Shown piece by piece: positions 32,662 to 35,674 of a DNA stretch of 64,000 bases. The position numbers were made by a program, and so were the translations under genes. Every line of letters starts with the position of its first letter. Position 1 is the stretch's first letter. Source of the stretch: Candidatus Thorarchaeota archaeon. Its GTDB lineage: Archaea > Asgardarchaeota > Thorarchaeia > Thorarchaeales > Thorarchaeaceae. The stretch is taken from the NCBI GenBank assembly GCA_029855935.1, contig JAGSHN010000020.1:64001-128000 (forward strand). The letters are read 5' to 3'. Under the pieces are notes generated by a model. It saw only the letters and a program-made list of their open reading frames with translations, was not told the DNA's origin and searched no databases.

Positions 32662-32876
32662 GGTGATCCCCTCGGTGCGGGCGAAGAACTCGTTCAAATA
32701 CCTACTGGCCAACTTGTGACTGTCAAGTCTCGGATGATTCTTATTAAGGCCAACGCGCATCGGTGTTCGCACTGGCTCGTTTGTGACCATAGATTTGCAC
32801 TCCACGCCCGTAAATTCGTCGCGTGCTCTCATACGGGCTGCTTACGGACCGGCTCGACATCTTCTACCGAGGAAAA

Positions 32877-33050
32877 ATGACCGCGATACGCAACGCATCC
32901 GACTTTCCGGACCTTCCGGACCCCCTCCCGTGGGAGGCAATGCCGGAGACCCCGGAGCCTGTGACTCCCTGGGAGGCAATGCCAGATCTTCCGGATCCTC
33001 TTCCGTGGAAGGCGATGCCGGAGACTCCAGAGCCTGTCACCCCCTGGTAG
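32877..33050 (+). CDS. Tandem Pro-rich ...PW repeat micro-protein (57 aa), putative peptide precursor
   Basis: GAGG RBS then ATG; MTAIRNASDF-PDLPDPLPW-EAM-PETPEPVTPW-EAM-PDLPDPLPW-KAM-PETPEPVTPW*; repeat copies differ almost only at synonymous sites. Confidence 0.75.
   Translation: MTAIRNASDFPDLPDPLPWEAMPETPEPVTPWEAMPDLPDPLPWKAMPETPEPVTPW
32907..33047 (+). repeat. 75-bp tandem repeat (about 1.9 copies), each copy made of two related sub-units
   Basis: 32907-32981 versus 32982-33047, aligned codon by codon. Confidence 0.9.
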
Positions 33051-33062
33051 GGTGGCGCAGAC

Positions 33063-33119
33063 GGGGGGCCTCGGACCCAAAGACCTGGCACCGGGACCCC
33101 CCGCACAACTTCTCTTCCT
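33063..33119 (+). terminator. GC-rich hairpin plus pyrimidine tract after the repeat ORF
   Basis: GGGGGGCCTCGG...CCGGGACCCCCC followed by CTTCTCTTCCT. Confidence 0.4.
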
Positions 33120-33200
33120 AGACCATTCCATGCGTCGGCCTCAGCACGCAATGGACAAGATTCTTCTACAGGGCAGCCCAAGCGAGGCCCGTGTGTGTGA

Positions 33201-33659
33201 ATGAGAGTTCTGCGTACGCCATCTGAGAGCAAGGACCTCCCCATCGTGATGCGCCTGGGCGTCACCACGTGGAGGGTGCTGCTCGCGCTACTTGGAGCCC
33301 GTCGTCCTCTCGGCCCGCGCAGCCTCGCCAGGATGCTAGACCTCAGCAGTCACAGCGTGGCCCTGTACCACCTGGAGAAGCTGATTGATGAGGGCTTGGT
33401 TGAGAAGACTTCAGATGGCGACTACAGGGTCCGACCTGATGCCCAGCTGGATTTCTTGGACGAGTTCCTGTATGTGGGATACCACGTTGTGCCGCGCGTC
33501 GTACTGTACGCCTCCTTTGTGACCGGACTGGTCCTTGCATTCGTTGTTCTTGGCTTGGCGGACTTCTCTGCTCAGACAATGTTCGTCTTCCTGATTGGAA
33601 TCTCTGCCTCTGTCTTTCTGTGGTCCGAGGTGTATCGGCAGTGGAGGAGGCTCCCGTAG
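33201..33659 (+). CDS. Membrane-tethered winged-helix (ArsR-like) transcription regulator with 2 C-terminal TMs
   Basis: PLGPRSLARMLDLSSHSVALYHLEKLIDEGLVEK...GDY; VPR then two hydrophobic helices ending in WSE. Confidence 0.85.
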   Translation: MRVLRTPSESKDLPIVMRLGVTTWRVLLALLGARRPLGPRSLARMLDLSSHSVALYHLEKLIDEGLVEKTSDGDYRVRPDAQLDFLDEFLYVGYHVVPRVVLYASFVTGLVLAFVVLGLADFSAQTMFVFLIGISASVFLWSEVYRQWRRLP

Positions 33660-33865: not shown

Positions 33866-35674
33866 ATGATGAGCGCACGCAGCCGAACTGAGAGAATGTG
33901 GTTGGGCAAGACCATTCGGAGGAACATCATGATTGGTTTCCTGCTGGCCTTCGTGGTTGCCGGGATGACGGTTGTCGCGCTACCACCACACTCGGCAGCG
34001 AGAATCACTGCGATCCTTGGAGATCAACTGAATGAACAGGCCACCATCTCCGCCGAGTCCTCCTCCGCGACTCCCTTGACCACGCTCACGCTGTTCAACG
34101 TCACACTCAGCACCGATTCAGAGGACCTCAGCGTGGATACCTGGCCAATCTCGTACGACCACCCTTGGGAGTCCTCTATCTCTTACAGGGCTGACGGAAT
34201 GCACATAGAGGGCGGCAACCTCAATGTCATCCTCTACCCGCTGGGATGCTCGGTGGCCTTCAGGTACTATTCCAGCATTCGCATTACGATTGTGATCTCA
34301 GGCCTGAGAGGTAGCGCAACTATCGATTCCACCGTGAGCTTTAGTCACGCCTACGGACCCGTGGCCGAGTCATCCGGTACTGCCTTCGTTAGGGCCAATG
34401 CTACGAAGACTGTGAGTCTTGAAGCACCGTTGAATGACGCCCTCGCATCGACCAACAAATCTGTCCTCGGATTGTATGCACGGTTCCGAATCGCAATGAT
34501 TGAGACCTCTGAGGTTGTCATCAGGTCCATTGTGGCTGTCGGTGAGACAAGCGAGCCGCTCTATTCCCTTCGTGTCACTCCTCTGTCTCCCACCGGAGAG
34601 TTCCTGTTCGACCTCCCCTACTTCGAGGATGTCTGGACACGCCCGTGTTTCAACCTCACCAAGGACGGTGACACTGAGTTTGGAGTCTTGTTACCCCGCC
34701 GGAGAGGGAGTGTTGTCTATCTCCCAGCCGGGGGATACGACATATCGTCGGCCTGGTCGCAATGGAGCCAGATCATTCCGCTTGCAAGCGCAAGCTTCAG
34801 CCTCGGAAACGACACTGGCGCCGAGGTTGAGGCGACATACCCGCTTCTTAAGGTGCTGCTCGACGTCAGGCCGGACATAGCAGTGCAGGTCAGTCTATAC
34901 GAATACGGCGAGCACGTGAGTTGGCCAGCGTACTACTACTCCTTCATCTTCATCGCACCGCCCTACCCAAAGACGCTGTACGTACCTGCCATAGTGGAGG
35001 TTCTCCACATTGGCGTCGCAGTCACGTATGCGAATGTCTACTACACCGAATCGGTTGAGCTCCCGAGCCAACGAGATGTGCAGTTCAGTGTCCAGCTCCC
35101 CTACTACCCATTCTTTGGTCTTGCACTTCCACCAATCCCAATGTACGTGGCGGTCTTCTCTCTGACACTCCTGGTACTCATCGCCGCTAGCATCCAACGA
35201 GCCACCCGCCCAATCGACCTGCGCGAACTCCTCCGACGACGTCATACCGTGCCCCTCCTGCTTCTCCTGCTGTCAGCCATTGTGCCCTGGTCTGCGTCTC
35301 ACGAAGCTGGCACCGATGTGTTGATAATCTACGTACTACCGCTTGCACTATTCATCAGAGCAGGATACGGTCTGGCCATCCCAATCTACCAAAACTTCGA
35401 CATTGCACTGGCCTTTTCGCTTGTCGTCTACTGGATACCCCTCTTCGTCCTCATCGGCCTGGCGCGAACCGACAGGTACGACAGGATCTTTGCAGCGGTC
35501 TTGGCGATTCCGGCCGGGCTGTCAACGGTGGCCCTTGTCACCTTTGGTGTCAACATCTTCACGCTGGGGCCAGTTGTCGTTGTCATCTCGTTTTTACTGT
35601 GGCTATCTCATATGGTCACGCAGTCTATGGGAGAACGAGAGACAAAGAGAACCACATCTGTAGAGAACTGGTAG
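33866..35674 (+). CDS. Membrane protein with a large extracellular beta-rich domain and about 6 C-terminal TMs
   Basis: N-terminal signal/TM, about 370-aa Ser/Thr/Tyr-rich region with N-x-S/T sequons, hydrophobic C-terminus. Confidence 0.8.
   Translation: MMSARSRTERMWLGKTIRRNIMIGFLLAFVVAGMTVVALPPHSAARITAILGDQLNEQATISAESSSATPLTTLTLFNVTLSTDSEDLSVDTWPISYDHPWESSISYRADGMHIEGGNLNVILYPLGCSVAFRYYSSIRITIVISGLRGSATIDSTVSFSHAYGPVAESSGTAFVRANATKTVSLEAPLNDALASTNKSVLGLYARFRIAMIETSEVVIRSIVAVGETSEPLYSLRVTPLSPTGEFLFDLPYFEDVWTRPCFNLTKDGDTEFGVLLPRRRGSVVYLPAGGYDISSAWSQWSQIIPLASASFSLGNDTGAEVEATYPLLKVLLDVRPDIAVQVSLYEYGEHVSWPAYYYSFIFIAPPYPKTLYVPAIVEVLHIGVAVTYANVYYTESVELPSQRDVQFSVQLPYYPFFGLALPPIPMYVAVFSLTLLVLIAASIQRATRPIDLRELLRRRHTVPLLLLLLSAIVPWSASHEAGTDVLIIYVLPLALFIRAGYGLAIPIYQNFDIALAFSLVVYWIPLFVLIGLARTDRYDRIFAAVLAIPAGLSTVALVTFGVNIFTLGPVVVVISFLLWLSHMVTQSMGERETKRTTSVENW

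Follow-up and report, generated by a model that had tools for sequence, protein, structure and literature searches.

Described systems offer several precedents for very small genes that specify short peptides. In the RRNPP pairs of Firmicutes and phages (Rap-Phr, PlcR-PapR, Rgg-SHP and AimR-AimP), the peptide is encoded beside its receptor; in multi-core precursors, such as cyanobactin PatE, the dikaritins and yeast alpha-factor, several peptide units are carried in tandem; and in the regulatory nascent peptides, such as TnaC, the PPW-containing peptide of the AZIN1 uCC and the arginine attenuator peptide, a short upstream open reading frame (ORF) carries conserved Pro or Trp residues by its stop codon. 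Here we describe a gene that shares features with each of these. It lies at 32877-33050 (+) of a 64,000-nucleotide stretch of DNA (hereafter the window) from contig JAGSHN010000020.1 of a Candidatus Thorarchaeota genome, and its 57-residue product, P0001, consists of a short leader and four Pro-rich units that each end in Pro-Trp. The evidence set out below indicates that the gene is very probably translated, that it belongs to a family of Trp-ended micro-proteins, and that members of this family recur just upstream of a gene for a large protein with an Lrp/AsnC-like predicted fold, for which the peptide may, we tentatively suggest, be the cognate ligand.

Archaeal small proteins are barely charted in general. 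Our literature searches (PEPW, Asgard ribosomally synthesised and post-translationally modified peptides (RiPPs), Thorarchaeota small peptides) found no description of this peptide family, nor any peptide ligand, pheromone or regulatory nascent peptide described for Asgard archaea. The window had previously been the subject of a sequence-only reading, which placed the host among the Asgard archaea; its origin from the Thorarchaeota bears this out. The DNA probably derives from a hydrothermal-vent metagenome.

Layout of the window gene

The ORF begins with an ATG at 32877, 4 nt after a Shine-Dalgarno-like GAGG (32869-32872, +). A leader of nine residues (MTAIRNASD, 32877-32903) is followed by unit A1 (FPDLPDPLPW, 32904-32933), unit B1 (MPETPEPVTPW, 32940-32972), unit A2 (MPDLPDPLPW, 32979-33008) and unit B2 (MPETPEPVTPW, 33015-33047), with spacers EA (32934-32939), EA (32973-32978) and KA (33009-33014) between them. 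The TAG stop codon (33048-33050) stands directly after the C-terminal Trp of unit B2; the same place is taken by TGA in the paralogue described below and by TAA in a relative from the same genus (genome G003). The leader-A-B-A-B layout given by the sequence-only reading is thus confirmed in the translated sequence, and so are the GAGG ribosome-binding site (RBS) and the downstream hairpin that it had pointed out. This hairpin (about 33062-33103, +) is G/C-rich and is not followed by a T-run, and its energy of -31 kcal/mol corresponds to a z-score of only -0.96. P0001 is an acidic, Pro-rich protein with four evenly spaced motifs. It contains no hydrophobic N-terminal segment or signal peptide and no KR or RR dipeptide, and it has no match in Pfam.

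The coding strand

Tandem Repeats Finder assigns the ORF a period of 75 nt. When its two 75-nt halves are compared, the 22 alignable codons show ten third-position differences, all synonymous, and a single first-position difference that is non-synonymous (E/K, in the third spacer), a recount that agrees exactly with the earlier one. This synonymous drift had been offered as strong evidence of translation in the plus frame. The comparison of halves is ambiguous with respect to strand, however. The third positions of the plus frame are also the third positions of an antisense ORF of 134 residues (32864-33268, -), which is as well conserved between the halves as the plus frame (one change), and because the two frames have these positions in common, the ratio of non-synonymous to synonymous divergence (dN/dS) between halves cannot choose between the strands.

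A second copy of the gene, on contig C4 of the same genome (G000:C4:168603-168776), does allow this choice. Residues 9-57 are identical in the two proteins, and 21 of these 49 codons differ at the third position; the leader is only weakly constrained, four of its first eight residues being different. The DNA similarity is limited to 32873-33048, starting 4 nt before the ATG and ending at the stop, and the flanks cannot be aligned. The 21 third-position changes lead to no amino-acid change in the plus frame and to four in the minus frame. Of the 29 sites with 4-fold degeneracy on the plus strand they affect 19, and of the 20 with 0- or 2-fold degeneracy only 2 (Fisher p = 1.2e-4); they show no relation to degeneracy on the minus strand (p = 0.22). 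In simulations, 100,000 trials with 21 random substitutions produced no case in which all were synonymous, and 4 such cases in the same number of trials when only third positions were allowed to change.

Since dN is 0 over 49 codons at a synonymous difference (pS) of 0.63, equivalent to a Jukes-Cantor dS of 1.37, and since the changes track plus-strand degeneracy, the plus ORF is under strong and long-standing purifying selection. The antisense ORF, whose extent is not conserved, was judged to be non-coding. Purifying selection on a translated frame therefore stands from the earlier claim, with the paralogue and not the halves as its proper test, and we regard the window ORF as very probably a translated small-protein gene on the plus strand. 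Saturated synonymous divergence with no amino-acid change gives this peptide family an unusually clean evolutionary proof of translation. The E/K spacer difference (E in the first pair, K in the second) is common to the window copy and its paralogue, and the internal A-B duplication must therefore be older than the duplication of the gene. The window copy itself is a dispersed duplicate, specific to this genome (G000), of the C4 copy.

A family of Trp-ended micro-proteins

The window gene is the four-unit extreme of an undescribed Thorarchaeal family of Pro-rich micro-proteins that end in Trp. The unit of the family has about 10-11 residues and is rich in Pro and acidic residues; its final pair is Pro-Trp, in rare cases Pro-Phe, and in the last unit this pair abuts the stop codon. 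The commonest form is a single-unit ORF of 11-17 residues, with 1-6 residues before the unit, and the forms with 2-4 units arose independently in several genera. In G003, which belongs to the same genus as the window, a four-unit gene with the layout MHSNNNISR-(QFMPGRPEPDTPW)x4-stop is built on four identical 39-nt repeats, with a hairpin and T6 after it. A hidden Markov model (HMM) built from three proteins yielded two further members, a single-unit copy in G003 that ends RSQ-MPGRPEPDTPW-stop and occupies the locus orthologous to C4, and a three-unit gene in another genus (genome G044), with the layout MITKT-(FDPG[DN]PDSEPW-N)x3-KYQSLF. A metagenomic protein, P0009, the only addition from an exhaustive HMMER search of 1.84 billion representatives, has three IMPFEPEPVTPWE units whose DNA differs at synonymous sites only.

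Other searches were less productive. In a search for proteins homologous to P0001, the 'near' length range contained nothing beyond the two G000 copies, which form one cluster at 90%, and the 'longer' range held no protein with words in common with P0001. A DNA search with the window gene in 40 relatives matched its own genome alone. The back-translated pattern of the B unit gave 42 matches in genome contigs, all of them single, bacterial and chance-like, and multiple matches in metagenome contigs on the P0009 contig alone; no further multi-unit relative came from these scans of the genome and metagenome collections. Matches of P0001 to 593-residue proteins in genus g5 (E 0.01-0.4) were taken as Pro-rich stretches of longer proteins, and 'PLVPWTGASGS' repeats in genome G373 were judged to be unrelated to the family. 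The sequence-only reading had left it possible that the gene would lack homologues or prove to be a fragment of an ordinary, longer protein. Homologues were found (C4, G003, G044 and P0009), and none of them is part of a longer protein.

Several features recur across the family. Spacers have 1-4 residues, and besides the EA, EA and KA of the window include QF, N, NT, SCKT, INRE and NFKS in other members. Most members have an RBS of the GGTGA or GGAGG type 6-12 nt before the ATG, and a T-run lies 3' of the micro-ORF at many loci. Every synonymous codon for Pro (four) and Glu (two), and each of the three stop codons, is in use in the P-E-P-W-stop ending, and the conservation of the micro-ORFs is centred on the last 5-10 residues by the stop, with synonymous sites varying freely. 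In genus g3, a conserved box, CCTATCGGAAGTTAACGTTC, with the palindrome GTTAAC inside it, is seen ~35-55 nt before the ATG of the micro-ORF (L098, L101 and L103-L106); the genes that it precedes are single-unit ones, and the box is a candidate promoter or operator.

Linkage to a gene for a ~660-residue protein

The C4 peptide gene is followed, 107 nt downstream, by the gene for a protein of 663 residues, P0005 (G000:C4:168884-170872; L085:8884-10872; L088:1501-3489), to which we refer as the partner. The same arrangement, with a homologue of ~660 residues encoded on the same strand 105-198 nt after the peptide gene, is found for the C4 copy, the single-unit gene of G003, the three-unit gene of G044 and the P0009 contig. 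Partner homologues are present in 74 of the 85 genomes of the window's family and in 1 of the 31 genomes of a second family (f5), with 1-3 copies per genome; none was found in the other genomes of the phylum that were searched.

The 30 best partner loci were inspected, and 27 of them have, on the same strand as the partner gene and 21-412 nt upstream of it, a micro-ORF whose ending is P[ED]P(..)P[W/F]-stop. These micro-ORFs differ in sequence from lineage to lineage. The form M[KN][ST]xHPGRPF[YS]PEPW precedes the partner in six species of one genus, and others are MRPSLEPSLPEPW, MVPKGPSRPEPW, MNGPVKPPHEPW and MIKMNEPPRPRPEPW. Two- and three-unit forms also occur at partner loci, namely DNPFTPPPEPW x2, FDPGDPDDEPW x2, LPPTKPPTEPW x2 with a tail, and DPSDPLTEPF x2 with a tail. 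Because P-E-P-W-stop would turn up by chance in any one stretch of 500 nt with a probability of around 1e-4 (an estimate from codon frequencies, not a computed value), the association of micro-ORF and partner gene is not accidental.

Very large proteins are encoded convergently to the partner gene in two genomes, one of >2370 residues in G000 (L085:10884-17996, -) and one of 2627 residues in G003 (L086:646-8529, +).

Predicted fold of the partner

An AlphaFold2 model of the partner, made from an alignment of 27 sequences, has a predicted local distance difference test (pLDDT) score of 87 and a predicted template modelling (pTM) score of 0.84. Residues 319-656 of this model superpose on NirDL (4czc), with a VIA Z-score of 10.9, a root-mean-square deviation of 5.6 over 270 residues and a Foldseek E-value of 1.6e-5. 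NirDL is a siroheme decarboxylase that comprises a fused pair of Lrp/AsnC-like modules, each with a helix-turn-helix (HTH) and a RAM domain. The closest clusters to the partner in the ESM Atlas are likewise archaeal proteins with HTH_AsnC-type domains. Pfam gave no match for the partner, HTH_AsnC and AsnC_trans_reg included, and a PDB sequence search with the partner alignment reached a best E-value of 0.22. The partner is thus a large member of the Lrp/AsnC superfamily by its modelled fold only. Neither Pfam nor the fold searches matched it to TPR proteins.

The first RAM-like domain of the partner carries an invariant W391-H393-H395 triad, within a RWPHxH motif. The N-terminal 320 residues are modelled as a beta domain and a helical domain, and when this half was folded alone it gave no convincing known fold (best Foldseek E 0.05; best VIA Z 4.4). 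The match at Z 4.4 is to the helical part of gluzincin peptidases; the HExxH motif is absent, and for this reason a peptidase reading was dropped. The whole architecture, in which an N-terminal beta and helical half is joined to a tandem Lrp/AsnC-like C-terminal half, is new. The Lrp/AsnC superfamily consists mostly of ligand-responsive regulators, with a small number of enzymes. The partner is almost confined to one Thorarchaeal family, and the amplification of units in the gene next to it provides repeated natural experiments.

Copies away from the partner

In the window, the peptide gene has other neighbours. Its ATG is 44 nt from the start of a divergent gene for a 695-residue oxidoreductase of the Old Yellow Enzyme (OYE)/pyridine-nucleotide-disulphide type (window 32832-32877), so that any promoter of the peptide gene must overlap the 5' end of this gene. 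On the other side of the peptide gene lie genes for a MarR-like winged HTH (wHTH) protein with two transmembrane (TM) helices (33201-33659) and for a 602-residue multi-pass membrane protein (33866-35674). Three genomes of the same genus (G001, G002 and G003) keep this pair of genes but lack a peptide ORF in front of it, from which it follows that the insertion of the peptide gene at the window site is peculiar to G000. Synteny lends no support to a 'peptide-sensing module' at this site. In G003, the four-unit copy (L006) is likewise apart from the partner, between a gene for a leucine-rich repeat protein and, downstream, a GNAT gene (L006:745-1332, -).

Upstream of the C4 peptide gene is a gene for a carbon-nitrogen hydrolase (L002:115-1044, +). 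The carbon-nitrogen hydrolase and GNAT classes both include polyamine enzymes, and these neighbours would be of interest if the peptide proved to be a pause motif sensitive to aIF5A or polyamines.

Genes for radical S-adenosylmethionine (rSAM) enzymes, YcaO, LanM, P450, prenyltransferases, peptidases or ABC transporters do not adjoin any locus inspected, and Pfam scans of the neighbours (in the window, at L002, L006 and further loci) detected no subtilisin-like PatA/PatG protease and no heterocyclase. The earlier observation that the window copy has no maturase beside it and no signal peptide in its product thus holds.

A scan for the P-E-P-W-stop pattern in 86 genomes of the family turned up sites both beside partner genes and elsewhere, and 20 sites away from partner genes were examined. 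The genome-wide count of CCNGARCCNTGGTRR, 106, compares with ~90 tallied for the reversed pattern and was not used as evidence of enrichment; the case for linkage depends on where the micro-ORFs lie with respect to the partner gene. Seven of the 20 sites lie 45-60 nt upstream of a gene for a conserved 82-residue protein, the micro-ORFs ending KPGDELPEPW or PVPEPW. In this setting a hairpin with compensatory changes comes after the micro-ORF, then the gene for the 82-residue protein, and then genes for a major facilitator superfamily (MFS) transporter and a HhH-GPD protein (L119, L120, L123, L124, L126, L130 and L134). A copy in G000 (G000:C2:38791-38826, -) has the same context and reads MDPISPDPAPF-stop behind a perfect GGAGGTGA. 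The 82-residue protein has no Pfam match, and an hhalign comparison of its family with the partner shows no relation. Four further sites have a common form, M..PP[KE]NPPEPW. Only convergent genes lie downstream of the second two-unit copy in G080 (L129), of MNEPSRPRPEPW in G007 (L136) and of the copy at L121. About six of the 20 sites look like chance occurrences, being inside longer genes or lacking an ATG.

What might the peptide do?

How might such a peptide act, and what is the significance of its position beside the partner gene? The reading that we favour, while holding it tentatively, is one of action in trans, in which the Lrp-like protein would have the peptide as its cognate effector or ligand. 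Recognition of the Pro-rich unit, with its terminal aromatic residue and free carboxylate, would fall to the RAM-type domains of the partner or to its N-terminal half, and multi-unit genes would raise the dose, either through cleavage after each Trp or by providing a multivalent ligand. Trans action is favoured because the multi-unit genes keep every unit constant while their leaders and spacers drift, because the repeated amplification of units resembles dosage selection on a product, and because unlinked extra copies are kept under the same constraint. It is favoured, too, because some copies have no adjoining partner (the window copy and L006) or have only convergent genes downstream (L129, L136 and L121), and because a hairpin with T6-T7 is found after the homologous genes at L002, L006 and L138. 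The invariable position of the stop after an aromatic residue suggests that the peptide needs an aromatic C-terminus that is free, and the fact that RAM domains in this superfamily bind small ligands carrying a carboxylate provides a further reason to favour action in trans.

Several points weigh against this reading. No export signal, protease or transporter was found to be linked to the peptide gene, and at 3 of the 30 partner loci inspected the peptide ORF is absent. Members of the family are also found upstream of unrelated genes (those for the 82-residue protein and MFS transporter, and for the wHTH protein with two TM helices), an arrangement that would fit a generic cis-acting leader equally well. 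The RAM domains of Lrp/AsnC proteins are known as binders of amino acids rather than of 10-mers. In NirDL/AhbAB this fold serves as an enzyme, and the invariant RWPHxH of the partner could be catalytic.

The earlier proposal had been broad, naming an Asgard peptide signal, a RiPP or a multivalent Pro-rich ligand. A signal or ligand stays the best reading; the RiPP fits poorly, the units being better conserved than the leader. Carried to its full extent, the trans-acting reading would imply a genetically encoded peptide-receptor system of Asgard archaea, in which peptides of ~10 residues with a C-terminal Trp, encoded singly or released from tandem precursors, are sensed by a receptor on an Lrp/AsnC scaffold. 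We put this forward as a speculative extension that is rather unlikely to hold in every part. If true, no regulatory or communication system based on peptides would have been described in Archaea before it, and dispersed extra precursor genes such as the window copy would serve to boost the signal.

Nearly all members of the family are upstream of another gene and co-oriented with it, at a distance of ~20-400 nt, and the downstream genes are of unrelated kinds (Lrp-like; 82-residue protein and MFS; wHTH with two TM helices). By analogy with attenuators, the nascent ...P[ED]P..PW chain might act in cis, slowing elongation or termination and so tuning read-through or translation of what follows. 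The concentration of conservation in the last 5-10 residues by the stop, with free synonymous variation, would be expected of such a leader or pause peptide, as would the attenuator-like layout, with a hairpin after the stop, compensatory changes in the 82-residue-protein context, and a T-run at many loci. PPW has, moreover, been reported to cause strong pausing that depends on EF-P/eIF5A, and to control AZIN1 in this way (PMC8705083, PMC10855120). The motif seen here has no consecutive prolines, however, and the internal units, which are not by a stop, are nevertheless under strict purifying selection. The copies at L129, L136 and L121 have only convergent genes downstream, and the wHTH genes with two TM helices in the same genus have no such leader. 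We know of no precedent among arrest peptides for the repeated, independent tandem amplification of a unit of 10-13 residues. On balance we see action in cis as a serious but doubtful alternative; it is the main rival to action in trans, and the sequence-only reading had not taken it up.

A RiPP or cofactor-type precursor would also have a multi-unit layout with invariant units and an invariant C-terminal aromatic residue. Each unit would in that case be the substrate of a modifying enzyme, either the adjacent ~660-residue protein or one encoded elsewhere, and would give rise to a modified peptide or a Trp-derived product. We have kept this explanation because the partner could be an enzyme: it adjoins the peptide gene, it has the invariant RWPHxH, and its fold has been recruited for catalysis in NirDL. 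Tiny precursor genes that precede the genes for their processing enzymes are known from pyrroloquinoline quinone (PQQ) and mycofactocin. Yet the single-unit forms, with just 1-6 residues before the unit, have no leader for an enzyme to recognise, and conservation is lower in the leader than in the units, the opposite of what is seen in most RiPPs. No known maturase adjoins the loci inspected, the pattern of Cys, Ser and Thr typical of known RiPP classes is lacking, and the best structural matches of the partner are regulators and ACT/RAM domains. These points make a precursor of this kind unlikely.

The acidic, Pro-rich character of P0001, its four even motifs and the lack of a signal peptide or protease site would also suit an unprocessed, disordered 57-mer that stays in the cytosol and docks, as a multivalent short linear motif, on an SH3, WW, EVH1, profilin-like or similar domain, and Asgard genomes are rich in eukaryote-like domains. 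Most members have a single unit and only 11-17 residues, however, and the constant position of the stop after an aromatic residue suggests that it is the free C-terminus, and not an internal motif, that has a function, so that we think this explanation quite improbable. That the window ORF is no gene at all, and is instead a tandem repeat without coding function or merely the complement of the 134-residue minus-strand ORF, can hardly be maintained: the antisense frame is open and is conserved between the halves equally to the plus frame, but the C4 paralogue gives no amino-acid changes in the plus frame against four in the minus frame, its substitutions track plus-strand degeneracy, the limits of similarity coincide with the plus-strand ATG and stop, and the start-units-stop layout is found again in several genera with unrelated DNA.

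Whether the peptide acts in trans or in cis, its mode of action would be new to this lineage, either as peptide sensing by a receptor derived from Lrp or as a Pro/Trp pause peptide in an archaeon whose translation factors are eukaryote-like. The family also shows that genes of 11-17 residues are being missed in Asgard annotations.

Comparison with known systems

Small proteins that bind neighbouring or metabolic proteins have been described from the small proteomes of Methanosarcina and Haloferax (PMC11456600, PMC10117724). Like the peptides described here, they have fewer than 70 residues, have their own ORFs led by a Shine-Dalgarno sequence and are often missed by annotation. There is no sequence relationship, and neither the repeats nor the Trp end is reported there, as far as we searched. 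A PEP-CTERM/archaeosortase signal was considered for the PEP-containing ending and rejected, the stop following directly on the Trp after PEP with no TM helix and basic tail. As to the partner, its C-terminal ~340 residues are like the Lrp/AsnC regulators and NirDL/AhbAB, and what distinguishes it from them is the additional N-terminal half of 320 residues and the RWPHxH motif.

The multi-core precursors have in common with the window gene a short leader, tandem units, short spacers and a variable number of units, and it was to the cyanobactin, dikaritin and alpha-factor precursors that the sequence-only reading had likened its layout. The fit is poor. Leaders of the PatE type have ~30 residues or more and include a recognition sequence, whereas that of the window gene has nine residues and is poorly conserved. 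Units of the present family are not flanked by conserved protease recognition sequences, no genes of the PatA/PatG, Kex2 or DUF3328 type (and no transporter) are nearby, and most members have a single unit. Alpha-factor precursors have a signal peptide, a pro-region and dibasic (KR) sites before the units; the window protein has no hydrophobic N-terminal segment and no KR or RR.

The regulatory nascent peptides TnaC, AZIN1 uCC PPW and the arginine attenuator peptide share their layout with the present family, each being a short upstream ORF with conserved Pro or Trp by the stop. Here, as there, a micro-ORF in most cases precedes another gene, RNA structure or a T-run follows it, and it is the amino acids that are conserved rather than the nucleotides. 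The differences are that P[ED]P..PW has no consecutive prolines, that the unit has been amplified in tandem with conserved internal units, and that some copies have no co-oriented gene downstream. We are aware of no archaeal arrest peptide described to date, and our literature search found none reported for the P[ED]P..PW motif.

The closest working likeness of the peptide/partner pair is to the RRNPP pairs. The partner has an Lrp/AsnC-like fold where the RRNPP receptors are TPR proteins, and its host is an archaeon; the peptides have no hydrophobic export segment, and their genes are linked neither to an Opp-type importer nor to a processing protease. Because the receptor fold differs and an export signal is lacking, the pair is not a member of the RRNPP group. 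What the two have in common is that a tiny peptide gene adjoins a gene for a cytosolic, regulator-like protein (the rule at partner loci, the window copy being among those that are not adjacent), that the conserved and presumably active part of the peptide is its C-terminal end, that the sequences are specific to lineages, and that several pairs may be present in one genome.

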